Source: Candidatus Parcubacteria bacterium (GTDB lineage Bacteria > Patescibacteriota > Saccharimonadia > UBA4664 > JBIOIQ01). From it: a stretch of 64,000 nucleotides of DNA. Made by a program: the position numbers and the translations under genes. The notes beneath the pieces were generated by a model. That model did no database searches. It saw only the letters and a program-made list of their open reading frames with translations, and was not told where the DNA came from. Shown piece after piece: positions 31,350 through 60,894 of the stretch. How positions within the stretch are numbered: position 1 is the stretch's first letter; each line of letters begins with the position of its first letter. The stretch covers positions 68,396-132,395 of the forward strand of contig OY970378.1 of assembly GCA_963718875.1 (NCBI GenBank). The letters are read 5' to 3'.

Positions 31350-31392
31350 GTTTTATAGAGTCTTTAGAATCCGTAACGTCCTAAAGTAGTTC
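31350..31392. terminator. hairpin between convergent genes
   Basis: CCGTAACG-(21 nt)-CGTTACGG inverted repeat between the DUF721 stop (31347) and the minus-strand stop (31392). Confidence 0.3.
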
Positions 31393-32870
31393 TAGTTCAC
31401 GTTACGGTTGTTAACCGGTTTGGAGTCGAATAGGAGTGTATTTGATTTGCTGTCGTATAAGTATAGTCGGATTGTGGTGAGGTCATAATATTCCATTTTG
31501 GCGCGGAAGGTTCGTTGGCTCATGGCAATATTAAAGTTGGCGGTGGCTTTGCCAGTGGGGTTTTTGCGGTCAATCGGTTCAAGATCAACGTTGGTTATAT
31601 CGACGACTTTGGGATTTAGGCTTGAGCTTAAGGCGTATTGGTAAATAGCGTACTTAAGGCTGCTTGACTGAGTGTTGGTTAAGCCATGCTTCATTAGTTC
31701 TTCTATGCCGGAATAGTTCCATTGGCTAGGCTTAAATGGTTCAATTTCCTTTGTATCTAGTTGTTCCGGAGAGGCAACGTAGGCGTTGTTACTGGAATCT
31801 AGCAGCAAAATTTGGTCATTTTCGTAAGCTACGACCTTTAAATTTGAAGGTATGGCCTGCCCTTTTGATAATTTAAAGCTTAGCTCAAAAATTTTGCCAG
31901 TTCCATCATCCAAGTATCCTGTGAGTTCGTTTTCGCCAACCGTTTCGACTGCAGCCCAAGCGTCGGCTGATCGGCTCCAGGCTGCTGTGCCAGAAAAGGC
32001 CGTATCGATGGTTGTGGGACTAGCCGTGTCGCTTAACGACAATAGTTGCAGGGGGCCGTTAACTTCGCTCAGGGCTTCTTGGCCTTTTTTAATTTCGATC
32101 GGGACTATTAATCCAGCTACCCCGCTGGTATTTAAAACAGTTAAACCTTTGAAATTGTCGTACAGGACTTGAACGGTTTGGTCTTTGATATTGAGCTGGC
32201 TCAAAGTGTGTTTATTGGCGGTATCGACTTTGTAAATAAGCTTATCTTGGTCCGCCCATAACAAATTCGGGCCATCAATTTTTGCCAAAGGGTTGTTGGG
32301 GCCACCTAATGATCCAGAGAATACCGTGTATTCGTATGGTTGGCTGCGGAAAAGTTGGATCTGGGTGTAGTAGTACGTCTCACCATCAATTGACCAAACG
32401 GCGCTATTTATAACTGTGCCGTCGGAAGCGGCGCCATCTGAAGACGGGCCTTGAGGCGAACCCACCAACTTTATTTGGCCGTTTGAGAATGATACAGACC
32501 ACCAGTATGATGCGTTGGACGGCAGTCGTTCTTGGTCAAGAATAGGCTTCAGCTGATCCAACGTGCTGTAGTCATTGGCTTTGAATAGGACACCATTTTT
32601 AGACCACTGGACTTCAAGAACGTTGGGTAGCGAATAGATTGGTGTTAGGGGGCTGGAGGCTTGAGTGGCCAGATCGAATTTTAAAAAGGTACTGCCGTTA
32701 AAATAGTAGGCTTCGGAAGGAGTTAGTTGGGCCGGATAACGAAAGTTGGAGGCTACAACTTTGCTAAAAAATAAGTTTTTTTGGGGAGACAATATTCTTT
32801 GCCCAAATAGCAGGATTGCAACCAAGACTACGGCTACTACAGCAACAGCAATTACTAATTTTTTATTCAT
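31392..32870 (-). CDS. secreted/membrane-anchored T4SS-associated protein (hypothetical, beta-rich)
   Basis: 492 aa, N-terminal signal anchor MNKKLVIAVAVVAVVLVAILLF, no recognisable catalytic motif; last gene of the minus-strand T4SS-like gene string. Confidence 0.5.
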   Translation of the reverse strand: MNKKLVIAVAVVAVVLVAILLFGQRILSPQKNLFFSKVVASNFRYPAQLTPSEAYYFNGSTFLKFDLATQASSPLTPIYSLPNVLEVQWSKNGVLFKANDYSTLDQLKPILDQERLPSNASYWWSVSFSNGQIKLVGSPQGPSSDGAASDGTVINSAVWSIDGETYYYTQIQLFRSQPYEYTVFSGSLGGPNNPLAKIDGPNLLWADQDKLIYKVDTANKHTLSQLNIKDQTVQVLYDNFKGLTVLNTSGVAGLIVPIEIKKGQEALSEVNGPLQLLSLSDTASPTTIDTAFSGTAAWSRSADAWAAVETVGENELTGYLDDGTGKIFELSFKLSKGQAIPSNLKVVAYENDQILLLDSSNNAYVASPEQLDTKEIEPFKPSQWNYSGIEELMKHGLTNTQSSSLKYAIYQYALSSSLNPKVVDITNVDLEPIDRKNPTGKATANFNIAMSQRTFRAKMEYYDLTTIRLYLYDSKSNTLLFDSKPVNNRNVN

Positions 32871-34045
32871 AGTACTCCCGGTAACTTTAGAAATGTGGAA
32901 ATTAAATTGGGCTGAGGGTCAATATAGTGCGTGCGCTCGGATTGGTCTTCGGTATTGGTAATCATAACGGAACTCATTTGAAAGTGGAGGTGTGGTGGGG
33001 TGCCTTCGGCGCAGGCAGACGGGCCAATAGTGCCTAGTTCTGTCCCGGCTGTTACTTCTTGTCCGTCGTGAATCTTAATAGACCCAGGTGACATGTGGGT
33101 GTAATAGTAATAAATGTTGTCAGTTCCCAAAATCTGCACCCTTGGTACATTTGTGCTTCCGGTACAAGTGGTGTCGACGGCTCTTATAACTGTACCGCCA
33201 ACAGCAGCCACAACTGGGGTGCCAATGGCGTCGAATATATCGGCCGCCCGGTAGTCGTGGTGACAGCTAGTGGGACTGTCGAAACACCAACCTCCAGCCG
33301 CCTTAATGGATTCTTGGGTGGTTTTTAGCGGAAATGTAAAATCGCCGCTAACCCCAAGTCCACCGCTGCAGGTGGGAGTGGTTCCTGGTGTAGGCGTGCT
33401 TACTGAAGCATTTGTGCTGCTTGTGGAGCTAGCATATAAATCATAGGCTTGTTGCGCATATTTGACGCGATCTTCAAAGTGAGCTCGGGCAGGATCTGGT
33501 CTTTCAAAACCGTCCATAAAAACCTTTGTGGCATCCCTTACTGTCGTTGTGCTTTTAAGGGTTGTTAAGGTTTCCCCATAGTCTTCGCTTAGTTCTTTCC
33601 ATAAAAAACCCAATTGGGGCTCGAGGGTGTTTACTGGCTTACTAACTGATTGGGCGTAGGCCACTAGTTTTTCTTGTCGCGATGGGAAGGTCCATTGGGC
33701 TATGCCAAAGCCTTCGTGTGGGTAGGGGTTGGGGTCTCCTTTGTGATTAGGGTTTTCTTGGGCAGTTGGGTCAATGATGCCGGCGCCTGATTCCCAGCGG
33801 ATGTTTCCTACTATGCCGGCGGATTGTTCCGGAGTTAGCCCTTGGCTGACAAAATATTTAAACGACGTTTCAATAGCGTCTGAGCCAATAAAAATTCCAG
33901 TGTCCTCCACGGTTTTACAGCGTTTTTCAGCATTATAATAAATTGCGTCGTAGTCGACAGATATTGGTACGTCGGCCAGAACTTGGGCTGGGAGCAAACC
34001 GATTAAAAGTGCCAATATAAGACGTCGTTTGATATAGGTTATCAT
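32867..34045 (-). CDS. secreted bifunctional cell-wall hydrolase: lysozyme-like domain + M23 (LytM) peptidase
   Basis: Signal peptide; GIVGNIRWESG...EGFGIAQWTFPSR resembles the phage-tail-type lysozyme family. C-terminal HHDYRAADIFDAIGTPVVAAVGGTV...THMSPGSIKIHDGQEV...PPHLHFQ is an M23 peptidase (HxxxD ... HxH). Confidence 0.6.
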   Translation of the reverse strand: MITYIKRRLILALLIGLLPAQVLADVPISVDYDAIYYNAEKRCKTVEDTGIFIGSDAIETSFKYFVSQGLTPEQSAGIVGNIRWESGAGIIDPTAQENPNHKGDPNPYPHEGFGIAQWTFPSRQEKLVAYAQSVSKPVNTLEPQLGFLWKELSEDYGETLTTLKSTTTVRDATKVFMDGFERPDPARAHFEDRVKYAQQAYDLYASSTSSTNASVSTPTPGTTPTCSGGLGVSGDFTFPLKTTQESIKAAGGWCFDSPTSCHHDYRAADIFDAIGTPVVAAVGGTVIRAVDTTCTGSTNVPRVQILGTDNIYYYYTHMSPGSIKIHDGQEVTAGTELGTIGPSACAEGTPPHLHFQMSSVMITNTEDQSERTHYIDPQPNLISTFLKLPGVL

Positions 34046-34048
34046 AGA

Positions 34049-36679
34049 TTAACTTCCGGTTACCGACCAGTGCCAAGGTTCGTTGGGAAGCAAGCCCTTA
34101 AGCCCATAGGTCCCAGCATTTTGTGATAACCAGGCAAAGCATTGATCTCCCCTGGACACTAGGCTGCCATTGCAGCTGAAGTCGATGGCGAGTCCCATTT
34201 GGTGGTTTGATTTACCTGGTGGGGCTACCTCTGCCCCACCTGAATCTCCGTTAAAAAGGTCCTGTTGGTGTTGCATGGTACGGAAGGTGCTGGTAGCCGC
34301 AATAGGTAGGTTGGCCGCTTTGGCGGCTGTTGCCAGGGCCAGGAAGGCTCCTGAGGCTCGCGAATTAACTAAGGCTAGGCCGTTGGCGCCGTTGATGTAG
34401 TATGGATCCCCTGGCGAGCTTTCTCTACTGCTACTCGCTAGGTTGGGGAGGGTGCAAAGTTTGATTTGGATGGGCGCCTCATTGTGATAGCCAGTATGGT
34501 TGCCGACTTCATTGGTTCCGGGAGAGCAGCCAATATTATCCGAGGGCTGGAAAACAGTGTTTAAATCAATTGTTCCACCAGCCGTAGTGCTGCTGCCGCC
34601 TACACCCGCAGCTGTAAGAAGAGGGTTTTTGTTTTTTAAACGCATAATGCCATGGATAACCATTTGGTCGGCTTTATATTGGCCGTAGCGTTGGGCGTCA
34701 ATGTCGCCTGCAAGGTTGTCGCATTTAGAGTTTGGGCCATCAATAATTCGTTGGGCGTAATCCTCAGAACTGCCGCCGTAGCACTTGTCATACTTACTCT
34801 TGAATGTTGCCAAGTTAGCTTCAATGTACTTGGCGTTTTCAAGTACTGGCCAGGTGGGAGCGTTGAGCGGAATCCCTACAAATGGTTGGCCAGTTACCGG
34901 GTCAACTGGGTCGGCCGCAAAGGCAGTTGGGGGTGAAACGGTGGCTAGGGCAAGCCGTCCGCTAGATAGTGCAAACTTGGCTGGACTAAAAATGGTCCCA
35001 AAAAAGTGGTTAATTTGCGCCAACATTCCGGAGGGTGATGATGGAATGGCAAACAAGGATTGGGTAAGTACGGAGCGAGGGTTGTTGGTATCAACTAGGC
35101 GCCAGGCAAGCCCTTTTTTCTTATCTAGAGCCAATCGCTCTTGGTGGATGACGGTTTCAAGAGCAACGTTTTCTGCAGGGGTGAGTTGTTTGCAACCGGC
35201 GCTGAAACAGGCGTTGTCGGCAATTATTTTGGTGCCTCCAGACATATAGTTGCCCCAGGCAAGTGGGCTGGCATTGGCTGATATGGCGGTGTGGGCCATT
35301 TGGGAAACTACGTGTACAGCCAAAGCTTTGCCGGCGATTCCAGCAAAAACTACCGCCCCGCCCGCTACAATCGATCCGACTACAGCTCCAACAGTGACGT
35401 TAACACCCGGAGTAAGAACAGCTCCTACTAAAAGCACTACTCCAGCGCCCGCTACCGCAAATTGCACGCCGGGCTTTAGGATGTAGGAACAAGCTTCTTC
35501 AATTTTAGGAATGCCTAAAAAGAAATTGAGAGCCTTGCCAACATTACCACCCGGTGGAGTGTTGGTTGGCTTGGCTTCATCACTAAGGCCTGGGCCGGTA
35601 ATCGGTTGCCCTGAAGCTTGCTGCGCGCCAGCGCTGTTTACAAAAGATTCTTGGCTGTTATCGAGCTTACTAGCAACGGCGCCAATGCCCGCTAATGGAA
35701 CTTGTCCTTGTTTTTGCCCATCGGCCCAAGCGTAAACCGACTCAGCGGCTTTTACGAGGCCTTCGGCCTTGTAAGCAATATAGGCTTTTTTGGAGGCACC
35801 CCAAATGTCTATGGCAATGCAGGCGATGGTCACTTTTGAAAAAATACTCAGGGCTTTACCAGTTGATTCAATTAACCTGGTAGCCGTGTTTTCAACCACA
35901 ACTTTGGGGTCACCGCCGTCTTGTACACCCTTTTTTGTTTCATCAACTGTGTCTTTAACCTCAGCGTCTGGAATTCCGCCTGGTCCCTTGCCTGGATCGT
36001 CAACTTTTGACTGAAGATCTTTGTCGACCGCCGCTTTTATGTCCGCGTCTGGTTTGGTGGTGTCTATGCTCGCTACCGAACGGTCTCTGACTTTGAATCT
36101 TGAATCGGTGTCGGCTCCTGGTGAACCCGATAAGTCTGATTTCATGTATGCGTCAACGTCGGCCTGGAGTTTTATTCGTTCCGGCGAGTCAAGATCAACT
36201 GGCAAGGGACCTTCGCCTTTAGCTTGAGATAGTTGGAGGTCCAGCGGGGCTTCTTTGGGTGCTGGGGCTTGACCTGCTTTTCCGGCTGGCACTGCTCTAG
36301 CGGCTTCCAGCGAGGCAGCAATGCGTTGGGATACAACTCGATTAAATTTGGCAAAGCGGTAAGAAATAAACAGCTCTTTTACGTGGTTAAGCTTAAACAA
36401 AAACAAGAACATAAAAAACAATATAAACGGTGCTAGAATTCCAATAATGCCGCCAACGCCAGCAATCATTTTCCAGCGTTTACTCAAGCCATTGATTTTG
36501 CCCTTCATGTTTTGGGCTTTCCCTTTGGATGATGCGCCTAGGCCAATTCCGTTTGCGCTTCCTCCGCCTCCGGGTTGGCTATCTTGGGCAAACTGATCGC
36601 GTGCGTCGTTTGAGGCAGTTTGTGGGGCCGACTCGTCTTGGGCGGTTGTTTCGTCTTCTGGTAGGGTACCCAGTGCCAT
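34049..36679 (-). CDS. large membrane protein with C-terminal M15 (VanY/LAS-type) peptidoglycan peptidase domain
   Basis: 876 aa; TM helix near residue 70, long Asp/Lys-rich linker, a Gly/Ala/Val-rich hydrophobic block, and C-terminal SNHQMGLAIDF...EPWHW characteristic of peptidase M15. Confidence 0.6.
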   Translation of the reverse strand: MALGTLPEDETTAQDESAPQTASNDARDQFAQDSQPGGGGSANGIGLGASSKGKAQNMKGKINGLSKRWKMIAGVGGIIGILAPFILFFMFLFLFKLNHVKELFISYRFAKFNRVVSQRIAASLEAARAVPAGKAGQAPAPKEAPLDLQLSQAKGEGPLPVDLDSPERIKLQADVDAYMKSDLSGSPGADTDSRFKVRDRSVASIDTTKPDADIKAAVDKDLQSKVDDPGKGPGGIPDAEVKDTVDETKKGVQDGGDPKVVVENTATRLIESTGKALSIFSKVTIACIAIDIWGASKKAYIAYKAEGLVKAAESVYAWADGQKQGQVPLAGIGAVASKLDNSQESFVNSAGAQQASGQPITGPGLSDEAKPTNTPPGGNVGKALNFFLGIPKIEEACSYILKPGVQFAVAGAGVVLLVGAVLTPGVNVTVGAVVGSIVAGGAVVFAGIAGKALAVHVVSQMAHTAISANASPLAWGNYMSGGTKIIADNACFSAGCKQLTPAENVALETVIHQERLALDKKKGLAWRLVDTNNPRSVLTQSLFAIPSSPSGMLAQINHFFGTIFSPAKFALSSGRLALATVSPPTAFAADPVDPVTGQPFVGIPLNAPTWPVLENAKYIEANLATFKSKYDKCYGGSSEDYAQRIIDGPNSKCDNLAGDIDAQRYGQYKADQMVIHGIMRLKNKNPLLTAAGVGGSSTTAGGTIDLNTVFQPSDNIGCSPGTNEVGNHTGYHNEAPIQIKLCTLPNLASSSRESSPGDPYYINGANGLALVNSRASGAFLALATAAKAANLPIAATSTFRTMQHQQDLFNGDSGGAEVAPPGKSNHQMGLAIDFSCNGSLVSRGDQCFAWLSQNAGTYGLKGLLPNEPWHWSVTGS

Positions 36680-36680
36680 A

Positions 36681-38549
36681 CTAGGCTACCTCGCTGCCTT
36701 GCGTGTAGCGTTCTTCAATTGATGGCGGATTGCTTTGGATCAAGTCGGACTCCGTGGCGGATGCTAAGATACGAATAATAACGTGGTTGAGGCCAGCAAA
36801 AAACAAACCTTCCCCTACTGGGAACTGGCTTAAACGGGCTTTTTCAGCTCCCGTTAGCTTAAAGGTGTCGGCTACAATATCTACGGCTGATGGGGCTTGT
36901 TTTAAAAGTAATTGCAAAGACGAGTTGGCAACTACAGCCCGGCCTAGCCTGGAACTAAGGAAGTCTTCGACGTCTTGGGAAATTGTAGTTAGGCCTAGTG
37001 AATACTTGCGGGCGCGCTTGGCGATTGAGAACATAAAGTTGGCTGAGTCGTCGTAGCGCATTAATTGCCAGGCTTCATCGACAATCAAAATACGTTTGCG
37101 CTTGTCGGATTTAACCTTATTCCAGATGTAATTCAGGATAATGTACATGGCGACTGGCCGCAGCTCGTCTTCGAGGTCGCGAATGTTAAACACTACAAAT
37201 TGGTTATTGATGTCGACATTTGATTGCTGGCTAAAAATACCAGAAAACGTACCGGTAGTGTATTTACGCAACCGTTGGGCTAGTGCTGGTCCATTACCGC
37301 TCATGCTTTCGAGCATACTATAAAGGTCATTCATGGTTGGCGGTGTAGCAGCATGGGTTAGAGGATCATTAGTAATGCCAGCTTTGGCGTAGGTGTTAAT
37401 GATGGCCACATCTAAGTCAGCGTCTTCGGCCGGAGTAAGTGCCCCATAATTGGCTTGGCTGGCGGTTTGAGTGCCAGCTTGGGCTTGGGCGCCACCCATC
37501 ATCAACCGCAGTAACCCATGGAGAGTAATAATATTGGCCCGGAGAGAATTATCGGCATCTTCGTCATCGAGAACCCGTGGCAGGTCAAATGGGTTGAGGC
37601 GAGTATCGGAGGCTAAGGAGACGCGCAGGTAGCTCCCCCCTACGGCATCACTGAGGGTGCGATATTCGTCTTCTGGGTCAATAATTATGACTTCAGTACC
37701 AAGCATTAGTGAGCGCAAAGCCTCTAGTTTTACAGCAAAACTTTTACCAGCGCCAGATTTGGCAAATACTACCATGTTGGCGTTTTCCAGACTAAAGCGG
37801 TCAAACAATACTAGTCCGTTGTTGTGGCGGTTAAGTCCATAAAGCACGCCTTCGTTGCGTGATAACTCGGTGGAGGTAAAAGGAAAACAGGTAGAAATAG
37901 CGCCGGTGCTCATATTGCGGCTAATCTGGAGTTGGTCGCTAGCAATCGGCAAAGTTGAATTAAAGGCTTGTTCCATTTGCAGAGAAGCCGGCTTGGTGTA
38001 GACAAGTGATTGGCCAAACATGCCTTCGATTTTGCGTTGCATGGTGGTAAGTTCTTCTAGGCTATCAGCGTACATTGTGACATAGAGGCCAAAGCGGAAA
38101 AAACGTTCCTCCCCAACTTGTAGTTTGTCGCGTAGCTCTTCGGCATCGACTATGGCTGCCTCTAGCCCCGGGTCGCGTACCCGGCCTTTTTCTTGGTTGA
38201 TGGTGTAGGAAGCTTGCAGCTCCCCTACCTTGCGGCGTAAATTGTTAAGGACCACTTGGCTCTCAACTGGGTAAATGTTGATACTGATGTCGAGTATTTC
38301 ATCGAGGTTAATGAGAGGGGAAAGCCAGCCGGTAAAAATTTGGCGGGGGTAGCCGTAAACGTACAACGTTCGGGCAAAGCGCTTTCCCAGCTGAAGGTAG
38401 GACGACTCAATTTTAAGAGACGGCGGCGCAATGAGGTCACGCATAGTAACAATTCCCTGACGGTAAACTGTCTCGGCTTCTTGCTGATCGCGGGCTTTTT
38501 GGCCTTCAGCCAGCATCACTGGATCGACTTTTGGTTTAAATAGACCCAC
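36681..38549 (-). CDS. virB4: VirB4/TrbE-family type IV secretion ATPase (ATPase domain ORF)
   Basis: Walker A VVFAKSGAGKSFA, Walker B ILIVDEAWQLM, plus conserved TISQDVEDF / FAGLNH C-terminal motifs. Confidence 0.85.
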   Translation of the reverse strand: MGLFKPKVDPVMLAEGQKARDQQEAETVYRQGIVTMRDLIAPPSLKIESSYLQLGKRFARTLYVYGYPRQIFTGWLSPLINLDEILDISINIYPVESQVVLNNLRRKVGELQASYTINQEKGRVRDPGLEAAIVDAEELRDKLQVGEERFFRFGLYVTMYADSLEELTTMQRKIEGMFGQSLVYTKPASLQMEQAFNSTLPIASDQLQISRNMSTGAISTCFPFTSTELSRNEGVLYGLNRHNNGLVLFDRFSLENANMVVFAKSGAGKSFAVKLEALRSLMLGTEVIIIDPEDEYRTLSDAVGGSYLRVSLASDTRLNPFDLPRVLDDEDADNSLRANIITLHGLLRLMMGGAQAQAGTQTASQANYGALTPAEDADLDVAIINTYAKAGITNDPLTHAATPPTMNDLYSMLESMSGNGPALAQRLRKYTTGTFSGIFSQQSNVDINNQFVVFNIRDLEDELRPVAMYIILNYIWNKVKSDKRKRILIVDEAWQLMRYDDSANFMFSIAKRARKYSLGLTTISQDVEDFLSSRLGRAVVANSSLQLLLKQAPSAVDIVADTFKLTGAEKARLSQFPVGEGLFFAGLNHVIIRILASATESDLIQSNPPSIEERYTQGSEVA

Positions 38550-38562
38550 TGGGAACCTCCGC

Positions 38563-38667
38563 GAATAATGAATAATGAATCATGAATAAAGGGAAACTGT
38601 CTTGCGTTTTGACCCTATAATTCTTAATTCTTAATTCGTGATTCTTAATTCGTGATTCGTGATTCGT
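38563..38667. repeat. inverted arrays of AT-rich heptamer repeats (GAATAAT-like / TRATTCK) in the virB4N-virB4C gap
   Basis: GAATAATGAATAATGAATCATGAATAAAG (38563-38591) and TAATTCTTAATTCTTAATTCGTGATTCTTAATTCGTGATTCGTGATTCG (38627-38667) are reverse complements of the same 7-bp family. Confidence 0.7.
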
Positions 38668-38674
38668 TTGCATA

Positions 38675-39433
38675 TTATTGTCCAAATGGTCCTGCTAATG
38701 GTGGTGGCGGGGCTTGACCTACGCCCTTGGTGACGGCAGCTGTTTGGAGTTGGCTAGCGTCAATCATTTTTTGGTTAGGGGCAACGTCTGGGTTGTAGGA
38801 AGCATAGTAGAGGTCAATGAGCTCTTGGGTATTGAGCGGGATGGCTCTAAGTCCCATTTGCGCGAGCCCCGCTGATACTAGCTGTACGCGTTGGGCTAGT
38901 TCGGATTTGGCTTTCTCGAAATCAGCGGCTGTAACAGTTATAACGGGTACCGGTTTAAAGATATTGGCGAGTCCTGAAGCCACATTGATTTTTGAAGGGT
39001 CAAGATGGGGGTAAAACGGCACCACAATAAAAAACAACTTGTCCATAATGTTGACTTCTTCGATCAAGCCCTTGATGTTAGCTATGTAATCGTCCATAAG
39101 CTCGGCTAAAAGTGCATTGCCTTGGTCTGAGCGAAGCTTACCAAGGTTGTCGATGTAGCTATCGAGGTCAATTTTTTGGGATTTAATTACAATTTGAAGC
39201 GGGAAATGTAAAGAGTTTAAAAATCCTTGATAAGCATATTCTACGGCGTCTTGTTCTTGCTGGCTCATCAGGTCAAAATTGATGGCGCTGGTCAAAATGA
39301 CTGCGCGCAAACTGCCATCGCGCAACACCACAACTCCATCTTTAATTTCAGATATCAGGAGGCTGCCTTGGGTGCTTTTGGTGCTGGCAGTTACAGGATG
39401 GGCTGGTTGGTTGATGGGGGGAGTTTTTGCCAT
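38675..39433 (-). CDS. VirB4 N-terminal-domain protein (separate ORF)
   Basis: 252 aa; LRDGSLRAVILTSAINFDLMSQQEQDAVEYAYQGFLNSLHFPLQIVIKSQKIDL resembles the N-terminal domain of VirB4/TraC-type proteins. A 125-bp gap to the ATPase ORF is filled by heptamer repeats. Confidence 0.5.
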   Translation of the reverse strand: MAKTPPINQPAHPVTASTKSTQGSLLISEIKDGVVVLRDGSLRAVILTSAINFDLMSQQEQDAVEYAYQGFLNSLHFPLQIVIKSQKIDLDSYIDNLGKLRSDQGNALLAELMDDYIANIKGLIEEVNIMDKLFFIVVPFYPHLDPSKINVASGLANIFKPVPVITVTAADFEKAKSELAQRVQLVSAGLAQMGLRAIPLNTQELIDLYYASYNPDVAPNQKMIDASQLQTAAVTKGVGQAPPPPLAGPFGQ

Positions 39434-39573
39434 TAAACATTAACCTTAGTTAAGTAAGAAACAAGCTACAAGATACAAGAAACAGATAGCTTCAATATTC
39501 AAATTTTCAAACAAGTGGAAAGTTTTTGTCGCTTGGGTATTTGTATCTTGTCTTTTGTGTCTTGGAACTTGCC

Positions 39574-40599: not shown

Positions 40600-40700
40600 G
40601 TATAACTCATCTTGGTAATGAACTACGAATATTGAATAAGGAATTATGAATGAAGAGACTTGGAGTTGACAAAAGTTGAACGATTTGATAAGTTAAACGT

Positions 40701-41390: not shown

Positions 41391-41490
41391 GGAAGAGTAA
41401 ATTCCTAATACCTAAACTCGAAATCCGAAGGGATTAACCAAAGTCTAATATTTTAAACATTTGCGCTTGAGTTATCCCTTCGGATTTCCC

Positions 41491-43572: not shown

Positions 43573-43807
43573 TGCGGTACGCTCTTCCTTGTAAGCAAGT
43601 TGACAATTGTGTCAACGATCGCGAGAATACTTTCACGCGAATTACAAAGTATACCACATTTATGGCGCTTATGGAAGAGTTTTATCTGTTGGAAGCACAA
43701 GCGTTTAAGTTTGTGAGAGGAAAACAAAACACAAGCATTTCGAGGGAAGCTCCCTCTTATTGCTTGTGTTTTGTTTTTTGCCTGATCACAAGTCCAGATT
43801 AGACTTA

Positions 43808-46522
43808 TCACGGCGGTGGCGGTGGCGGTGGCGGTGGCGGTGGCGGTGGCGGTGGCGGTGGCGGTGGCGGTGGCGGTGGCGGTGGCGGTGGCGGTGGCGG
43901 TGGCGGTGGCGGTGGCGGTGGCGGTGGCGGTGGCGGTGGCGGTGGCGGTGGCGGTGGCGGTGGCGGTGGCGGTGGCGGTGGCGGTGGCGGTGGCGGGCCT
44001 GATACAGAAGGTGGGGGCGCCTTAAGAGTTTTTGATGCACGGTCAACATGGTTGTCAAGGAAGTCTTGTAGGCTCATTTCATTACCGTTGAGAGTAATTT
44101 TGTGTGCCCGGGTGTTAACAGTAGGGTCTGACTCAAGAGCTAGAAGTGCTTCTACGCCCTTGCTTGAAAAGTTGGTTCTAGAAGTGGAATCTTCCATGAC
44201 TTGAGCGATTTGACCCATAAGGGGGTCAATTCTGCCTTCACTTGCAGCAAGCTCAACAGCTTCGGCTTGGCGCTCTTTAGAAAAATTGGCAAGCGCTTGA
44301 CCATTGGCTCCTCGGAGTTGCTCGTAGCCGTCAGGACGGAAGCCAGATTTTGCAGCCCAAGAACCATTGGATCCTTCGTGAGCATTCGACCATAGTTGCG
44401 CGGCTTTTGTTGCGTTGATCCTTCCCCCAGTTTTTGCTTTCAGCTTATTTGGGTCAAATTTACCATTTGCGCCTTGAAGACCTGCAGAAGTATGTACCAC
44501 TGCTCCAGTTTCGTCTTTCCAGTCGCCGCCTTGCATAAGTTTGGCGTATTCTGAGCTCCCTCCATTGCGCATTAGTCTTTCAAGAGCTGCTTGATACATT
44601 TGATCGTCCATTTTGGTTCCATCTGGTAATTCTCCCTTGGCCAAGGCTAAACCTAAGGCCACGTTGTCCGGGGTAAGACGCTTAAGCGTCTCGTCGTGGT
44701 CTTTGCGTCTAGCGGCCTCGGCGGCACCGATACTGGCATTCCTTCTTCGTTGGCCTGTCGGCCCATAGCTAAAAGCATTGCCCGATCCGACCCGACCCAG
44801 AACTTTTTTTATGCGGCCAGAGTCTGGGTCGCCCATCATAAGAGCGGCTTTTTCTCGGCTGGATTCTTTGGCATTTTTCATCAAGCCATTACTTCTTAGG
44901 CCCTTGCTCATTTTGCTGGCTCTCCCCTGAATGGCGCCGCTGACTGCTCCCATAAGCGTTCCCGAGGCCTTAAGGGTTTTTAATACCAAGAAAAATAAAA
45001 TGATGGGACCTAAGGATGACATAACTTGTTGGATTGGATCGCTTGCATTCCCCACCAAAGCCGGAAAGTCACTAATGATTTTGCCAGCGTAAATAAGAAT
45101 TACGATCATAGGGAACATTAGTAGTAGCTTAATTAAATTGGTGGACCACATTTTGAATAACTTTTCGGTATTGGGTAGTACCCAGGCAGCAAGTGCAATC
45201 GGAGACATTAATACCAAGAGATAGAGAATTATTATTCTGGCTTCGAGAGTAACAAATACTGCCAGGATCGAAACTAATGCACTTGCTAGTAAAAGTAACA
45301 AGGGTATTACAAGCCCTACAGCAACAGCGGCTGTGCCGGCAACAGCACCAATAGCCACAGCTTCTAGCCCTCCAAAGAATTGAATGGTACCACTATTGCC
45401 GCTACTAACGTCGTTTAAGGTGCTAAGTGGGGCTAAGAGTCCGCCTATGCCTCGTCCTAAAACATTGGTAAAGTCGATGGCAAAGGCCATAAGTACAAAT
45501 GAAAATTGCACCAAAATAACTGATAGTACTAGTCGTGGTAAAACTTTTTTAATGGTGTAGGCGTCTAAACCTAGGGCGTTACTTCCCAAAATAGCAAAGA
45601 ATATTAAGACAAAAAACACGTTGGCAATGTTTCGAATAATTACCCAGGCTTGGTAAACTGTGGTTGCGTTGCCACTACTATCTTCTGATGCCAGCGGGGC
45701 TGATTGGAGATAATTCAAAATTCTTGTTTCCAAGAAATTGACGGACCCTGTGGCCATGGAAATTAGCGGGCAAAGAATCCAACCTAACCCGCCTTGAATG
45801 TTGCATTTATCTTTAATGGAACCTGAATTTGAGGAGGCAAGACTAACTGAAGCATCGGGCGGCGTATTGCTGATAAGGACGGTACGCGTATCATTTGATT
45901 CGCATGCGTAGGTATTAAAAAATCCCACAATGGTTCTTTGAGTTTTCCTAGGGGTGAAGCGGCCAGTTTCACTGTTAGGGGCGGTTTGGACGGTGCTATG
46001 GCAGTCGCCACTGTTTTTTTGGCCGTAGATATTGGGTTCTGCTGAATTGTTTTGAAAAATTTCGGCCCCAATTTCATCATGTTGTCCGGTTTTAGCCCCT
46101 TTTAGCTCAAAATCGTAATTTGTGAAGGCCGGAGTTAAGGTGTCACCACTGGTCCTATAAAAGTAGACAGATGCTCTGGCTACTTCGCCCATTTCGAGCG
46201 GACGCTCACCGTCATATATGCAGTCAGAGTTGGCGGGATTGGAATGAAAGGAAAATAGGGTGGCTTTTGAGCTAGGATTTGGACTGCCCTCAAACCGTCC
46301 AATCCAGTTTGAGCAGGTTTTGTCGCCATTCAAATAATATTGACGTCCACTATCACCCAGAATGTTATCGATATAGACATCGTTGCCAACCTTGATATGG
46401 GCAGCGTCCAGCCAGGTGGCGTCAGCTGCATAAGCTGGAGTGGTAGGTAGGAGGACGGCGATCATGGGGATCAACACCAATAACATAAACGCTAATGCGC
46501 TTTTTTGCCTCAACCGGTTCAT
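43808..46522 (-). CDS. VirB6/TrbL-family polytopic T4SS membrane protein with large N-terminal ectodomain and ~60-residue C-terminal polyproline tail
   Basis: 904 aa; signal peptide, ~220-aa extracellular domain, multi-TM core paralogous to 41491-43572, C-terminal KAPPPSVSG(P)n encoded by the microsatellite. Confidence 0.65.
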   Translation of the reverse strand: MNRLRQKSALAFMLLVLIPMIAVLLPTTPAYAADATWLDAAHIKVGNDVYIDNILGDSGRQYYLNGDKTCSNWIGRFEGSPNPSSKATLFSFHSNPANSDCIYDGERPLEMGEVARASVYFYRTSGDTLTPAFTNYDFELKGAKTGQHDEIGAEIFQNNSAEPNIYGQKNSGDCHSTVQTAPNSETGRFTPRKTQRTIVGFFNTYACESNDTRTVLISNTPPDASVSLASSNSGSIKDKCNIQGGLGWILCPLISMATGSVNFLETRILNYLQSAPLASEDSSGNATTVYQAWVIIRNIANVFFVLIFFAILGSNALGLDAYTIKKVLPRLVLSVILVQFSFVLMAFAIDFTNVLGRGIGGLLAPLSTLNDVSSGNSGTIQFFGGLEAVAIGAVAGTAAVAVGLVIPLLLLLASALVSILAVFVTLEARIIILYLLVLMSPIALAAWVLPNTEKLFKMWSTNLIKLLLMFPMIVILIYAGKIISDFPALVGNASDPIQQVMSSLGPIILFFLVLKTLKASGTLMGAVSGAIQGRASKMSKGLRSNGLMKNAKESSREKAALMMGDPDSGRIKKVLGRVGSGNAFSYGPTGQRRRNASIGAAEAARRKDHDETLKRLTPDNVALGLALAKGELPDGTKMDDQMYQAALERLMRNGGSSEYAKLMQGGDWKDETGAVVHTSAGLQGANGKFDPNKLKAKTGGRINATKAAQLWSNAHEGSNGSWAAKSGFRPDGYEQLRGANGQALANFSKERQAEAVELAASEGRIDPLMGQIAQVMEDSTSRTNFSSKGVEALLALESDPTVNTRAHKITLNGNEMSLQDFLDNHVDRASKTLKAPPPSVSGPPPPPPPPPPPPPPPPPPPPPPPPPPPPPPPPPPPPPPPPPPPPPPPPPPPPPPPPPPPPPP
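43816..43995. repeat. perfect (GGTGGC)n hexanucleotide microsatellite, ~30 units
   Basis: About 180 bp of uninterrupted GGTGGC repeats; on the minus strand the TrbL-like ORF frame reads CCA CCG = Pro-Pro. The other frames give the artefactual RW/AV/HR ORFs in the track. Confidence 0.95.
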
Positions 46523-46594
46523 GAATACAGTTTAGCATAAAACGCTAATGGTTATGTCGCTTACTGATAACGCAACCAAAGTTATGTCCTGCCT

Positions 46595-46624
46595 TTGACA
46601 TTGTGGTTTTGCTTCGGATATGAT
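46595..46624 (+). promoter_or_regulatory. candidate sigma70-type promoter for the pilin array
   Basis: TTGACA (46595-46600), 18-nt spacer, TATGAT (46619-46624), 8 nt upstream of the first pilin ATG, in the divergent region between the TrbL gene and the pilin genes. Confidence 0.35.
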
Positions 46625-46631
46625 CTAGCTA

Positions 46632-47336
46632 ATGAAAAAGTTAACAGCTCTAATCCCAGTCCTTGCTTTTGCAGTTGTAGTCACATTGTTATTTAGTCCA
46701 CGCGCTGCATTGGCGGATGAAAAAAGTCATTTGTATGGTAACTCAATATCGGAGTGCCGACCCGGGAGCTATTTGTTGTCTGAGCAAGCTGGGCCGGCGC
46801 TCGGAAATTCCTGTTTAACGTTGAGCGATGATAGGACTACTTATTCATCCGCGCCGGCGTCATCCGGTGCTTGTCCAGACAATAGTGAGGGCGCCAGGGG
46901 ATTTAAAGCCAGGCAAGGCACCGATCCAGCGCGATGTTTTTATTTTCAAACCGGTACACTTGAAGTTTCAACCCCTTCTTTATCTACGCCCACGCCTCAA
47001 GCCGGGACATCTCAGGCGTTTCAAGGAGGCTGCAATAACGGCGGCGTCAAGCTAGGGATTAATATTAACTCGAGTGATAATAATTGCGCCGGGGGCAATG
47101 GCGTAAACCCAATTTACGCTTATTTGCGCAGTATTATCCGTTTTGTATCGGGGCTGTTTGGGATAATTGCGGTATTAATGGTAATTCTGTCTGGTTTTCA
47201 ATACATGACATCCGCTGGCAGTCCAGAGGCTGTAAAAAAAGCTAAAAGCCGCTTGGCAAATGTAGTCTTGAGCATTATTGTATTTGCCATGATGTTTGGC
47301 ATCCTTAACTACTTGATTCCGGGAGGGGTAATTTAA
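46632..47336 (+). CDS. VirB2/TrbC-like pilin paralog 1 with extended Cys-containing N-terminal domain
   Basis: 234 aa; signal peptide; C-terminal ~75 aa has the shared two-helix module (IRFVSGLFGIIAVLMVILSGFQYMTSAGSPEAVKKAKSRLANVVLSIIVFAMMFGILNYL). Confidence 0.55.
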   Translation: MKKLTALIPVLAFAVVVTLLFSPRAALADEKSHLYGNSISECRPGSYLLSEQAGPALGNSCLTLSDDRTTYSSAPASSGACPDNSEGARGFKARQGTDPARCFYFQTGTLEVSTPSLSTPTPQAGTSQAFQGGCNNGGVKLGININSSDNNCAGGNGVNPIYAYLRSIIRFVSGLFGIIAVLMVILSGFQYMTSAGSPEAVKKAKSRLANVVLSIIVFAMMFGILNYLIPGGVI

Positions 47337-47683
47337 TGCATGCGTTTAAGATTTTGGCTGCTGCATGCACGCCGGGCGGTAACAATACTAGTTTTTTGTT
47401 GCCAGATCTTTACAAGGGTTTGCGAGGGTCCGACGGTCTCTGCATTACGAGCTTAACCGCTATTGAAGTATTGCTCATGAACATAGTGCAAATAATATTG
47501 GCTTTAGCGGGACTGGCGGCGGTATTCATGGTGATTTTTGCTGGATTTACTTACATTACTTCCAATGGTAACGCTCCCCAAATTACCAAAGCTAAGGATA
47601 CGTTGATAAACTGGGCGTTTGGTTTACTTATAATTATTGGTGCTTATGCTATTGTGGGTCTAGTGGCAGGAGCTTTGAACTAA
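47336..47683 (+). CDS. VirB2/TrbC-like pilin paralog 2
   Basis: 115 aa; signal peptide + hydrophobic helix - GNAPQITKAKDT - hydrophobic helix; start overlaps the previous stop. Confidence 0.55.
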   Translation: MHAFKILAAACTPGGNNTSFLLPDLYKGLRGSDGLCITSLTAIEVLLMNIVQIILALAGLAAVFMVIFAGFTYITSNGNAPQITKAKDTLINWAFGLLIIIGAYAIVGLVAGALN

Positions 47684-47684
47684 G

Positions 47685-47990
47685 ATGGCTGTTGAATTTT
47701 TAGCTCAAGCCCAACAGCTTTGTCGGACTGCGGCTGATTGTGGCCTTCCTAATGTGGCTTTTACCAGCAGTACTTTGGGTCAAATTATTAGCTTGTTATA
47801 TAAGGTGTTGGCGGCCTGCTCAATTTTATTTCTTATGTTTGGGGCCTTTAAATACGCTGCTTCAGGTGGCGACTCAGCGGGTATAAAAAACGCCAAAGAA
47901 ACAATTTTGTACGCAGTTTTTGGCCTGATTATTAGTCTTTTAGCCTTTGTTGCGGTAACATATCTATCGAACAGAGCGGGAGGATTATAG
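47685..47990 (+). CDS. VirB2/TrbC-like pilin paralog 3
   Basis: 101 aa; ...FGAFKYAASGGDSAGIKNAKETILYAVFGLIISLLAFVAV. Confidence 0.55.
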   Translation: MAVEFLAQAQQLCRTAADCGLPNVAFTSSTLGQIISLLYKVLAACSILFLMFGAFKYAASGGDSAGIKNAKETILYAVFGLIISLLAFVAVTYLSNRAGGL

Positions 47991-48394
47991 TGATTAAGCT
48001 AAAATCGGCATTTTTGACATTGCTTGTGGCTGTTGGCCTAGGCGGTGGATTAAGTGTGGTTCTTCCCTCGCTGGCTTTGGCAGCTGATACGCCTTCGCAA
48101 ATTATCACTACTCAAGCCTGTAAAACCAATCCATCTGCCCTTGGCTGCCGTGCAAACGATAAAGTCTTTGGTGCTGGCAGCATATTTAATAACGGCATAG
48201 CCGTATTGATAGGTTTAATAGCTTCAGTCTCGGTGGTGATGGTAGTAGTTGGTGGCTTGCGTTACGTGCTTTCTGGTGGCGATTCAGCTGGTATAAAAAG
48301 CGCTAAAGATACCATTTTGTATGCATTAATTGGGTTGGGTGTGGCGTTGGTGGCGTTTTTGATTGTTGGGTTTGTAATAGGAAGAATAGGATAA
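47990..48394 (+). CDS. VirB2/TrbC-like pilin paralog 4
   Basis: 134 aa, GTG start overlapping the previous stop by 1 nt; VVGGLRYVLSGGDSAGIKSAKDTILYALIGLGVALVAFLIVGFV. Confidence 0.55.
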   Translation: MIKLKSAFLTLLVAVGLGGGLSVVLPSLALAADTPSQIITTQACKTNPSALGCRANDKVFGAGSIFNNGIAVLIGLIASVSVVMVVVGGLRYVLSGGDSAGIKSAKDTILYALIGLGVALVAFLIVGFVIGRIG

Positions 48395-48395
48395 C

Positions 48396-48812
48396 ATGAG
48401 TATTATGAAACGAAGATTTCGAGATTATATTTATACCTCCGCCTTGCTGGCTCCAGCTGTTTTGCTTGGTGGGCGAGCCCTTGCAGTAGATCCCAACTCC
48501 CCTACAGCGCAGGCTTGCACTGGTATTGGCGGTACGCTTAATGCAGCTGGTAAATGTGTGGTCGCTACCTCTAGCGGCAAGGTTGGTGATCTGGGCACAG
48601 CTTTTAAAGCAGTGGCTAACACGCTCATTTTTGTTGTAGGGGCGATTTCGATCATCATGGTTATTATTGGGGGCTTGCGCTACGTGCTTTCAGGGGGTGA
48701 TTCAGCTGGGATAAAGAGCGCTAAAGATACGGTTTTATATGCCCTCATTGGTGTGGGCGTGGCAATTGTGGCTTATGCGCTAGTTAACTTTGTCATAACT
48801 GCAATCACATAA
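48396..48812 (+). CDS. VirB2/TrbC-like pilin paralog 5
   Basis: 138 aa; IIGGLRYVLSGGDSAGIKSAKDTVLYALIGVGVAIVAYALVNFV. Confidence 0.55.
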   Translation: MSIMKRRFRDYIYTSALLAPAVLLGGRALAVDPNSPTAQACTGIGGTLNAAGKCVVATSSGKVGDLGTAFKAVANTLIFVVGAISIIMVIIGGLRYVLSGGDSAGIKSAKDTVLYALIGVGVAIVAYALVNFVITAIT

Positions 48813-48924
48813 TCCAAATTAATTTTTATTATTCTTATGCTTAAATGTTGTTTTGGCCTAGTCAAGCGTTAGCAATTGTGATACAAAGAAACAGTAAACA
48901 AGCCTTTAAGGAGAACTTATTCAA

Positions 48925-49350
48925 ATGACACAAACAATAAAATCGTTGGGTGGTAGGGCAGCTGGTGCAGCCGTATTAATAGCTACATTTGGTACTGGAG
49001 CATATGCTGGAACGCCAGTAACATGTGACCCTACAACAAGTACCGATCCTATTCAAAGCGGCGTAAACTGCAGTCAGCCTGCAGGTAGGGCTGGAAATTC
49101 CCAACTTTTTGGTGGGACCGGATCTATTTTCCAAACTGTTGCTAATACACTTATTTTCATCGTAGGAGCTGTTTCAGTAGTAATGCTTATCATCGGTGGC
49201 TTGCGTTACGTATTGTCGAGTGGTGAAGCCTCAGCTGTTAAGGGTGCTAAAGACACCATTCTTTACGCCATTGTGGGTATTGTAGTGGCTATTCTGGCCT
49301 TTGCGGCCGTATCGTTTGTGACTGGTCGATTTGGCGAGCCTACTGCTTAA
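48925..49350 (+). CDS. VirB2/TrbC-like pilin paralog 6
   Basis: 141 aa; IIGGLRYVLSSGEASAVKGAKDTILYAIVGIVVAILAFAAVSFV. Confidence 0.55.
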   Translation: MTQTIKSLGGRAAGAAVLIATFGTGAYAGTPVTCDPTTSTDPIQSGVNCSQPAGRAGNSQLFGGTGSIFQTVANTLIFIVGAVSVVMLIIGGLRYVLSSGEASAVKGAKDTILYAIVGIVVAILAFAAVSFVTGRFGEPTA

Positions 49351-49406: not shown

Positions 49407-49508
49407 TGGCGGATTTCTTGTTTTGATTCAGCAGACGAGAGATGGAGCCCTATAGGTGGGAACATAGTTCGTCAAACTTTTAAAAGGTTGTTAGAGGAAA
49501 GAAATTGG

Positions 49509-49967
49509 TTATCCTACTGGCTTAACCTTAATTTTCTTAACCTTATCTTGGGCAACTTTGGGGATTGTAACGGTTAATACGCCGTCTTTAAGAGCAGCTG
49601 AGGCTTTTTCGGCAATGGTGGAGGTAGGCAGAATCACTGAGCGGGAAAACGAGCCCCAATAACATTCTTGAACGTAATAATGCTCGCGGTCAACTTCGCG
49701 CTCTTCTTTGCGTTCGCCCCTTAGGGTTACAACGTCTTCGGATACACTAATGTCAATATCGTCGGCTTTAACTCCAGCAATGGGAGCCTTAATGACCACA
49801 GAGTCTTTGGTTTGGTATACGTCAACGGCTAGCTGGCCTTCTAGCTCTTCGTCACCTAGCCAATCTTCGCCCGTACTGCTGTTATTATCGAGAAACTCGT
49901 CTTGCAAGACGTCTTCATCACCGTTTGGAGCGTTTTTCTTACCCGCCATTTTTACCATTTCCTCCAT
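49509..49967 (-). CDS. Hsp20/alpha-crystallin family small heat-shock protein
   Basis: 152 aa; ACD core PAVDVYQT...VVIKAPIAGVK...ISV...VLTLRGERK...GVLTVTIPK. Confidence 0.8.
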   Translation of the reverse strand: MEEMVKMAGKKNAPNGDEDVLQDEFLDNNSSTGEDWLGDEELEGQLAVDVYQTKDSVVIKAPIAGVKADDIDISVSEDVVTLRGERKEEREVDREHYYVQECYWGSFSRSVILPTSTIAEKASAALKDGVLTVTIPKVAQDKVKKIKVKPVG

Positions 49968-50134
49968 AATTATCAGGTTTGCTACCGTCCCCTCGGGTTG
50001 CTTATTTCAGCCACTTTCCACTATTATATGCAGACCAGGGACGGAAAAGCAACACAAGCAAGCATTTGGCGCTACGCGTCGGATGCTCATAACCAAGGAA
50101 AATGGGCCATGAGGGTGGGCTTTGACTCACTAAT

Positions 50135-50803
50135 ATGGCTTTTTTTGAAACACTTATTGCTATGATTGCACCTCATGCTTGCGTTCTTTGCGGAGTGGAA
50201 GGGCAAATGTTGTGCAAGAGCTGTTCGGCTAAGGCTGTGATTGTAAAACATTCAACCTGTTACCGATGTAATGCTCTGACTGACGACTGGCGGACGTGCC
50301 CATCGTGTAGGGTAAATACCCAGCTAAGTGGGGTGGTGGTTTCGGCCTATTATGACGGCGCAGTAAAAGAGCTCATTCATGAGCTTAAATACGAGCGCGC
50401 ACGGGCAGCTGCAGAAGTTTTGGCTACATTTTTGACCCCTCGTATCAATTCTAAAGAGTTTGATTTTGTGACGTCTGTACCAACTGATCCAGCCCGGAGG
50501 AGGCAAAGGGGGTATAACCAAGCGGAACTGATTGCAAAGGCTGTCGCCAAAGAGCTGAGCCTTCCTTACGTGCAAGTGTTGTTACGGGTGAAGCCAATTC
50601 ATCAAGTGGGGGCGGAGCGAAAACGGCGTTTACAACAGATTAAAGGAGCTTTTTTACCTTATCGAGAGCTGTTTATTAACGAGTCTCGCGTGTTGGTTGT
50701 TGATGATGTGGTAACTACGGGAGCGACATTGGCTGAGTGTGCCAGCGTTTTAAAAGCTGCTGGGGCCAAGCGAATTTGGGGAGCCGCCATTGCCAAGCAT
50801 TAG
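50135..50803 (+). CDS. comF: ComF family protein (ComFC-like phosphoribosyltransferase-fold competence protein)
   Basis: N-terminal four-Cys zinc finger (CVLCG...CKSC...CYRC...CPSC) and C-terminal PRTase motif VLVVDDVVTTGATL. Confidence 0.75.
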   Translation: MAFFETLIAMIAPHACVLCGVEGQMLCKSCSAKAVIVKHSTCYRCNALTDDWRTCPSCRVNTQLSGVVVSAYYDGAVKELIHELKYERARAAAEVLATFLTPRINSKEFDFVTSVPTDPARRRQRGYNQAELIAKAVAKELSLPYVQVLLRVKPIHQVGAERKRRLQQIKGAFLPYRELFINESRVLVVDDVVTTGATLAECASVLKAAGAKRIWGAAIAKH

Positions 50804-60889: not shown

Positions 60890-60894
60890 TCTCA

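Follow-up and report, generated by a model that had tools for sequence, protein, structure and literature searches.

A 64,000-nucleotide stretch of the genome of Candidatus Parcubacteria bacterium (contig OY970378.1 of assembly GCA_963718875.1, positions 68,396 to 132,395 of the forward strand; hereafter the window) contains, at positions 31392 to 49350, a locus that is very likely an ordinary copy of the canonical chromosomal, origin-proximal type IV secretion system (T4SS) of the Saccharimonadia (Patescibacteria), a machinery that would descend from Gram-positive conjugation systems (MPF_FATA) and have been repurposed. Almost every member of the Saccharibacteria has this cluster beside the origin of replication. 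The system is already known as the Patescibacteria T4SS (PMC10633639, PMC12102498), and the published accounts cover its pilin arrays and TrsD as well as the lack of a relaxase and the location close to dnaA. The locus in the window has the features of this clade of T4SSs, namely the type of VirB4, an adjacent TrsD, PrgI and VirB6, a pilin array, proximity to the replication origin, and no relaxase or type IV coupling protein (T4CP) gene within the 64 kb.

In Southlakia epibionticum, the T4SS encoded by SEML1_0006-0019 was found by Wang et al. 2023 (Cell; PMC10633639) to be essential for growth on the host bacterium. The system is similar to those that serve conjugation in Gram-positive bacteria; it includes a series of essential pilins, and has no recognisable coupling protein or relaxase in its cluster. 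A 2025 review (PMC12857230) describes it as the first T4SS shown to be essential and as the only monoderm T4SS with VirB2-like pilins, of which there are six. In the survey of Quiñonero-Coronel et al. 2025 (Microb Genom; PMC12102498), most VirB4 proteins formed a Patescibacteria clade related to MPF_FATA, with TrsD as the commonest partner, PrgI/VirB3 and VirB6 near virB4, VirB2 arrays of 2 to 11 genes, and proximity to dnaA and dnaN a common feature. The locus in the window, whose orthology to the SEML1 locus is judged from the published description and from 80 Saccharimonadia loci, resembles that of S. epibionticum ML1 in its VirB4, TrsD, PrgI/VirB3 and VirB6, its six divergent VirB2-like pilins, the peptidase and lysozyme after virB4, the lack of a relaxase or T4CP in the cluster, and the chromosomal position beside dnaA, dnaN and recF. 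It differs in having a second VirB6, a VapBC pair at the virB6-prgI junction, a tail of 62 prolines (Pro62) on VirB6a, and a last gene in which an N-terminal domain of ~340 amino acids (aa) is fused to a conserved C-terminal domain of ~110 aa.

Genes of the T4SS locus

The open reading frames (ORFs) of the window were listed and searched against Pfam and NCBIfam profiles with curated thresholds (Table 1). All of them lie where an earlier reading of the DNA (the sequence-only reading) had placed them, and all 15 T4SS ORFs are intact. The minus-strand genes are transcribed in the order VirB6a (904 aa), VirB6b (693 aa), PrgI, TrsD-like protein, VirB4, VanY protein (876 aa), lysozyme-M23 hydrolase and 492-aa protein, divergently from six VirB2-type pilin genes on the plus strand (46632-49350). 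The intergenic region between the two sets holds a sigma-70-like sequence on the plus strand (TTGACA-18-TATGAT, 11/12 matches, 46595-46624), which is a putative promoter by consensus match only. The proposal of a VirB4-based, T4SS-like apparatus was borne out in that PrgI, VirB4, the six pilins and the two hydrolases all scored above thresholds.

Table 1. Coordinates in the window of the T4SS genes, the inserted gene pair, the neighbouring genes and the associated sequence features
Feature	Position	Strand	Evidence
dnaA	25074-26462	+	Pfam, called gene
dnaN	28874-29986	+	Pfam, called gene
recF	30030-31106	+	Pfam, called gene
N-terminally anchored extracytoplasmic protein, 492 aa, last gene of the string	31392-32870	-	no family match
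Secreted wall hydrolase, lysozyme-like and M23 endopeptidase, 392 aa	32867-34045	-	Phage_lysozyme2 E 1.3e-29, Peptidase_M23 E 5.3e-14
Membrane protein with C-terminal VanY-type (M15B) peptidoglycan peptidase domain, 876 aa	34049-36679	-	VanY E 1.4e-13, residues 771-874
VirB4 ATPase, 622 aa	36681-38549	-	profile and PDB matches
TrsD/TraD-like soluble protein, 252 aa	38675-39433	-	NCBIfam TrsD E 4.1e-8
PrgI-family (VirB3-like) protein, 341 aa	39574-40599	-	PF12666 E 2.5e-14, 54 bits vs cutoff 27
VapB-type antitoxin, MazE/AbrB-fold, 76 aa	40701-40931	+	MazE_antitoxin PF04014 E 9e-11
VapC PIN-domain toxin, 141 aa	40965-41390	+	PIN PF01850 E 4.5e-17
VirB6/TrbL-like polytopic membrane protein, paralog B (virB6b), 693 aa	41491-43572	-	family-level TrbL, fold search
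VirB6/TrbL-like polytopic membrane protein, paralog A (virB6a), 904 aa	43808-46522	-	paralogy, ortholog TrbL_3 match
Perfect hexanucleotide repeat (CCGCCA, coding strand), 30.8 copies	43812-43996		TRF 100% matches, score 370
Divergent intergenic region, virB6a/pilin array	46523-46631		best sigma-70-like site of the locus
VirB2-type pilin 1, 234 aa, long Cys-containing N-terminal extension	46632-47336	+	T4SS_pilin E 5e-10, TrbC E 4.8e-6, Mbov_0395-family E 3.5e-9
VirB2-type pilin 2, 115 aa	47336-47683	+	T4SS_pilin E 6.6e-8
VirB2-type pilin 3, 101 aa	47685-47990	+	T4SS_pilin E 6.5e-7, 29.8 bits vs cutoff 26.6
VirB2-type pilin 4, 134 aa	47990-48394	+	T4SS_pilin E 3e-6, 27.6 bits
VirB2-type pilin 5, 138 aa	48396-48812	+	T4SS_pilin E 2.3e-6, 28 bits
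VirB2-type pilin 6, 141 aa	48925-49350	+	T4SS_pilin E 5.9e-7, 29.9 bits
hsp20	49509-49967	-	HSP20 E 3.9e-20
comFC	50135-50803	+	ComF TIGR00201 E 1.1e-25
tRNA-Arg, after comFC	50945-51020		tRNA search

The VirB4 ATPase belongs to the Gram-positive CD1110/MPF_FATA type: its score for the CD1110-family profile of NCBIfam (conju_CD1110) is 366 bits, the cutoff being 325, and it also matches P-loop_TraG (E 2.3e-26), AAA_10 and DUF87 in Pfam and the VirB4 ATPase domain of PDB entry 4AG5 (E 2.8e-44). Both Walker motifs, A (GAGKS) and B (ILIVDEAW), are unbroken and the protein is 67-85% identical to its orthologs in 80 Saccharimonadia species, which together indicate strong purifying selection. By similarity ranking rather than by a tree, the nearest VirB4 proteins (the named matches among the top 120 listed, and all 80 loci) are those of Saccharimonadia/Patescibacteria or of unclassified metagenome-assembled genomes. 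VirB4 covers positions 179-730 of the 752-position CD1110 model and retains a weak match to the CagE_TrbE_VirB N-terminal domain.

The gene directly upstream of virB4 encodes a TrsD/TraD-like protein of 252 aa with homology to the extreme N-terminal part of VirB4: it aligns at positions ~110-220 of the models for complete VirB4 proteins of Gram-positive bacteria. Its match to TrsD falls under the curated cutoff of 200 bits; it also matches VirB4_plasma at positions 112-218 (E 2e-7) and CD1110 at positions 118-174, a precomputed match to PF26593 (TraC-like) is on record, and a search against PDB sequences returned zero matches. From the sequence alone virB4 had been called split, which is right as to the N-terminal homology and wrong if a broken gene is meant: the arrangement is that of TrsD and VirB4 in pGO1, and the adjacency of the two genes is kept in 67 of 70 related loci. 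The 125-nucleotide gap between trsD and virB4 holds a short tandem repeat (38618-38667) with 7-nucleotide units TAATTCT/ATTCGTG, in ~3.6 copies of the 14-mer. The PrgI-family protein, of which the start codon is probably the ATG at 40590, has two N-terminal transmembrane (TM) helices, as located by TM scan, and a long tail rich in proline, glutamine and alanine.

Both large membrane proteins at the head of the string can be accepted, at the family level, as extended VirB6-type proteins on the basis of homologs and a structural model. They are 34% identical to each other over 450 aa (E 2e-66). In a hydropathy scan, VirB6a consists of a signal peptide, an extracytoplasmic N-terminal domain of ~240 aa, a multi-helix core (~289-525), a hydrophilic C-terminal domain and the tail of 62 prolines; VirB6b has a signal peptide, a linker rich in threonine, serine and proline, a membrane core and a helical C-terminal domain. 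Neither has a significant match of its own in Pfam or NCBIfam, the TrbL matches being faint both for VirB6a (E 1.2, profile positions 46-210 of 215) and for VirB6b (E 0.31, positions 5-207 of 215). TrbL is matched by 9 of 46 VirB6 homologs (best E 4.6e-5), and the 889-aa ortholog of VirB6a in the related locus L082 matches PF19590 (TrbL_3). The AlphaFold2 model of VirB6b (mean predicted local distance difference test score, pLDDT, 78.7) had as its top PDB match in Foldseek the TrwI/VirB6 protein of R388 (7o3v_G, probability 1.00, target TM-score 0.44), and another five VirB6 chains ranked among the first 24 matches; a profile of the 46 VirB6 homologs found zero matches among PDB sequences. The label "TrbL-like" given by the sequence-only reading thus holds for the family, through the homologs, the TrbL_3 match of the ortholog and the fold, and does not hold for the two proteins of the window taken alone.

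The gathering score of PF18895 (T4SS_pilin) is passed by all six plus-strand ORFs, the other five being 19-30% identical to pilin 1. Among 251 pilins of related loci, 236 have their best match outside their own array, in another genome; the best match of pilin 1 stands at array position 1 (VirB6-proximal) in 39 of 47 other genomes, and that of pilin 2 at position 2 in 26 of 45. The pilin paralogs are therefore ancient and conserved in position. Complete arrays (n=30) range from 4 to 8 genes, with six genes in 14 arrays, five in 8 and four in 5. Tandem arrays of several divergent VirB2 genes are also known from the T4SSs of Bartonella and Anaplasma (a comparison made in PMC12102498, where antigenic variation was raised as an idea for VirB2 arrays). 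Unlike those arrays, the one in the window consists of ancient paralogs whose order is kept across species, which favours a filament of specialised subunits over antigenic variation and suggests that the pilins have distinct structural roles rather than resulting from recent amplification.

A large gene (750-1280 aa) directly follows virB4 in nearly all relatives. Here it encodes the 876-aa protein with predicted TM segments at residues 69-100 and ~400-459, and the 392-aa hydrolase encoded next begins with a signal-like segment (residues 8-30). In L082, whose VirB4 is 88% identical, the corresponding region (11880-16278, compared with 31392-36679 of the window) encodes a large membrane protein that ends in M23, not VanY, and a second hydrolase in which the lysozyme domain is combined with a weak Peptidase_C39_2 match, as opposed to M23 in the window. 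The hydrolases after virB4 appear to swap catalytic domains among close relatives.

The 492-aa product of the last gene has two modules, an N-terminal domain (residues ~30-370) and a conserved C-terminal domain of ~110 aa (residues ~375-490; 31392-31820 in the window) with the pattern Y.G...L...G.t..Q ... LYLYD....YDSG. An exhaustive search found 322 representatives, many of them proteins of 150-280 aa that match residues ~355-492 only; these consist of a TM segment and the C-terminal domain and are the small last gene of the relatives. The domain, which belongs to no Pfam family, either follows a TM helix as the sole domain or is joined to further domains, Big_5 Ig-like domains among them. 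Its model (pLDDT 85.6) has two helices on a five-stranded sheet, a predicted cystatin/NTF2-like fold, and the VirB8-like TraM structure 4ec6 ranked 42nd in the fold search (E 0.81), which thus showed no specific similarity to VirB8; the domain may still be a divergent VirB8. The ~110-aa domain marks the conserved last gene of the T4SS operon across the Saccharimonadia.

Chromosomal context and insertions in the Saccharimonadia

Synteny was examined in a set of 80 Saccharimonadia loci (L001-L080), one genome per species, by mapping the proteins of the window onto the ORFs of each locus. The recurring order is comFC, hsp20, pilins, one or two VirB6, PrgI, TrsD, VirB4, large membrane protein, wall hydrolase, small anchored protein, recF, dnaN and dnaA. 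The comparison with Saccharibacteria T4SS loci that the sequence-only reading had recommended thus gave the same order across 80 species. PrgI adjoins TrsD/VirB4 in 64 of 66 loci, there are two VirB6 copies in 9 of 46, and of the 80 loci, 52 have recF, 47 have dnaN and 38 have dnaA downstream of virB4. In the window, the T4SS string ends 286 nucleotides from recF and its last gene is 4.9 kb from the end of dnaA, with mnmE, jag/khpB, yidC and rnpA on the minus strand ahead of dnaA. No T4CP, relaxase, VirB11, integrase or plasmid-replication (Rep) domain was found in the scanned ORFs of at least 100 aa in this 64-kb part of a genome of ~1.19 Mb, and no ORF of the T4SS locus matched VirB8, VirB9 or VirB10 in Pfam or NCBIfam; these profile scans agree with the sequence-only reading, which had recognised no VirD4, relaxase, VirB11 or VirB8/9/10. 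Occupation of the same chromosomal site in dozens of species, together with the absence of integrase and replication genes, fits vertical inheritance rather than a mobile element.

At the far end of the array, hsp20 adjoins the pilins in 26 of 30 loci, and comFC lies beside the array in 18 of 21. The proximity of comFC to the array, which had been singled out from the sequence alone, is therefore real and conserved; it is not immediate, however, as hsp20 intervenes on the opposite strand, so that comFC is not co-transcribed with the pilins. Both hsp20 and comFC are best regarded as conserved neighbours that are not demonstrably part of the machine. The sequence-only reading had also considered the combination of features at this locus unusual, whereas most of it is the norm for the class: six is the modal number of pilins, TrsD with VirB4 is near-universal, and two VirB6 genes recur in 9 of 46 loci. 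What is local to this genome is the VapBC pair and the polyproline tail, two peculiarities that appear to be lineage-specific additions.

The arrangement of the genes at 40701-41390 is that of a VapBC type II toxin-antitoxin pair, as predicted from domain matches: vapB and vapC are on the same strand, 33 nucleotides apart, between virB6b and prgI and opposite to the T4SS string. No homolog of the pair was found by blastp in the 80 related loci. A hairpin (41420-41488) lies between the stop codons of vapC and virB6b, and a promoter-like site (40672-40643, minus strand; putative, by consensus match) lies just upstream of prgI. In L081, a 95%-identical relative, the contig stops 272 nucleotides upstream of prgI and that stretch is unalignable to the vapB region of the window, which suggests that L081 is without VapBC. 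The gap between virB6 and prgI has a median of 60 nucleotides and exceeds 400 nucleotides in 14 of 55 loci (L015, L032, L039, L047, L051, L056, L060, L065, L069, L070, L073, L076, L079 and L080), nearly all with lineage-specific ORFs. L032 has an alpha/beta hydrolase there and L056 an unrelated PIN toxin, and a number of the other ORFs encode charged proteins without assigned function. The virB6-prgI junction is a recurrent insertion slot in Saccharimonadia T4SS loci, and the genes in it could be accessory or effector genes.

The hexanucleotide repeat at the 3' end of virB6a encodes residues 843-904, all proline, right before the stop codon, and no comparable proline run is present among the VirB6 homologs of the 80 related loci. 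The repeat may be either a recent in-frame microsatellite, probably variable in length, or an artefact of assembly; with a repeat unit of 6 nucleotides, the length of the tail could vary in frame.

Possible functions of the apparatus

By analogy, a function is inferred from the orthologous system SEML1_0006-0019 of S. epibionticum, which is essential for growth on the host. Hexamers of TrsD/VirB4 on PrgI and VirB6 would provide the energy to build a short filament or conduit of the VirB2 type across the monoderm wall, while the two hydrolases would open the wall locally and may also attack the host wall at the site of contact. The apparatus would work at the interface of epibiont and host, in protein delivery to the host bacterium or as a conduit, and not in conjugation or ComEC-dependent transformation. 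A cell-contact or effector system that suits an episymbiont had been one suggestion of the sequence-only reading and is the current published interpretation (PMC10633639, PMC12102498, PMC12857230).

The other suggestion had been DNA import of the kind performed by ComB of Helicobacter pylori, in which DNA would be drawn across the wall by the pilins and the VirB4 core and then passed on to ComFC/ComEC. This would account for the conserved comFC neighbour, seen here and in the 18 loci noted above as it is in class ABY1, where co-localisation of comF has been noted (PMC12102498), and for the missing coupling protein and relaxase, ComB likewise being an apparatus with VirB2, VirB3, VirB4 and VirB6 and without VirD4, VirB11 or a relaxase (for the window locus, within the 64 kb). 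ComB, however, is an MPF_T-type system of a diderm, with ComB7-10 spanning the outer membrane, whereas the cell considered here is monoderm, its VirB4 is of the MPF_FATA type and there are no homologs of VirB7-10; the comFC gene is separated from the pilins by hsp20 on the opposite strand, and competence has been credited to type IV pili, not to the T4SS (PMC12857230). In S. epibionticum, a comEC deletion mutant has lost transformation but is viable, and neither comEC nor comF nor dprA is a fitness gene, in contrast to the T4SS and its pilins, which are essential (PMC10633639). Because comEC is dispensable for growth and the T4SS is not, the essential role of the T4SS is not ComEC-dependent uptake, and import of this kind is considered very unlikely for the locus in the window. 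An inward-directed machine that is independent of ComEC, in which a heteropolymeric VirB2 filament and the two hydrolases would breach the host envelope and TrsD/VirB4-VirB6 would import host macromolecules or nucleotides, is a speculative and rather unlikely reading. If true, it would explain essentiality in an organism unable to make nucleotides, amino acids and lipids; a coupling protein and a relaxase would be unnecessary, and the neighbouring comFC would represent either a relic or an accessory connection. The virB6-prgI slot would, on this reading, be occupied by accessory or effector genes specific to each lineage, namely the alpha/beta hydrolase gene of one species, the PIN toxin genes of two, and genes without assigned function in others.

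The core clearly derives from Gram-positive conjugation systems. In common with conjugative MPF_FATA T4SSs, the locus encodes a CD1110-family VirB4, a pGO1-type TrsD and PrgI, a channel protein resembling VirB6 and multi-domain wall hydrolases anchored in the membrane, and it lacks a VirB7/9/10 outer-membrane core. A working conjugation or mobilisation system with its coupling protein, relaxase and oriT elsewhere in the genome would fit this ancestry and the published observations that VirD4-like genes are present in most Patescibacteria genomes and that the T4CP is usually far from virB4 (PMC12102498), as the window spans 64 kb. Unlike conjugative MPF_FATA systems, however, the locus is not accompanied by a coupling protein, relaxase, oriT, adhesin or mobile-element backbone. 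It encodes pilins of the VirB2 type, which are missing from Gram-positive systems (PMC12102498), and has no recognisable VirB8-like protein. The phylum has very few relaxases (the survey detected 109, in 103 of thousands of genomes, against 2,474 virB4 genes), and in S. epibionticum a distant T4CP is non-essential while the T4SS, including the peptidase and lysozyme downstream of virB4, is essential (PMC12102498). With the fixed site beside dnaA, dnaN and recF in dozens of species and no integrase or replication genes, conjugation is judged highly improbable, and the sequence-only reading was correct that the locus, lacking an adjacent coupling protein, relaxase and VirB11, is not a textbook conjugation operon. 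The same missing partners, the toxin-antitoxin pair inside the string and the hypermutable simple repeat at the end of one gene might instead be taken as signs that the locus is what remains of an integrated conjugative element, now decaying and without a function. Such decay is extremely improbable given that every T4SS ORF is intact, that VirB4 identity and gene order are conserved across 80 species, that the ortholog is essential in a cultured relative (PMC10633639), and that changes in the length of a 6-nucleotide repeat stay in frame.

Several points weigh against a repurposed T4SS acting at the host interface, which is nonetheless the preferred interpretation. Taken singly, the scores behind the VirB6 assignment are weak (E 0.058 in Foldseek, and E 0.3-1.2 in Pfam for the proteins of the window), and VapBC interrupts the string, in which case expression of prgI, trsD and virB4 would rely on an internal promoter matched by consensus. 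A distant T4CP is likely to be encoded elsewhere in the ~1.19 Mb genome, beyond the window, and a relaxase could be as well. The essentiality data come from another genus (S. epibionticum ML1), and a substrate, an effector or a pilus has yet to be demonstrated in any T4SS of the Patescibacteria, as has the direction of transport. What these systems transport bears on the host-associated life of a sizeable fraction of uncultured bacteria, a question that the window makes no more testable than does the published S. epibionticum system. The interest of the locus lies in what such systems do in general and not in features specific to the window; what the present analysis adds is the synteny of the block from comFC to dnaA across 80 species, the antiquity of the pilins, the ~110-aa domain of the last gene, and the virB6-prgI insertion slot.

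Other features of the window

The gap between dnaA and dnaN (26463-28873) is 2.4 kb long, as against a spacing of ~270 nucleotides in L082, with a G+C content of 0.53. It contains ORFs of 130 and 233 aa without a family match and one of 183 aa that matches the N-terminal asparaginase domain only, and looks like a lineage-specific insertion at the origin region.

On the other side of the T4SS, beyond tRNA-Arg, ~9 kb of higher G+C content (53300-62300; 0.51-0.55) have no ORF longer than 183 aa and no Pfam or Rfam matches, and are dense in dispersed repeats, including a 65-nucleotide hairpin-like unit in four copies, a GC palindrome in four copies, and blocks of 230-450 nucleotides at ~56.3, 58.1 and 59.8 kb. 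Copies of the ~210 nucleotides after tRNA-Arg (51020-51232) are present at 58460-58667 and 60110-60317, each preceded by '...GGGGCACCA', which reads like a remnant of a tRNA 3' end. This pattern suggests tandem insertions of cassettes or islands, or segmental duplication, at tRNA-Arg, with no integrase seen. For the T4SS itself, an integrative conjugative element at tRNA-Arg was considered and rejected, given the conserved chromosomal synteny and the lack of an integrase. A second VapBC-like pair is located at 62001-62656, where an 83-aa ORF is directly followed by a 134-aa PIN ORF (PF01850, E 3.6e-7).

A surface-polysaccharide cluster of lower G+C content (0.41-0.44) occupies positions 4718-20388. 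It encodes epimerases and dehydratases, a Wzm/Wzt-type ABC-2 exporter with a Wzt C-terminal domain, FkbM and other methyltransferases, six glycosyltransferases, and a Wzy_C (O-antigen ligase-like) protein.

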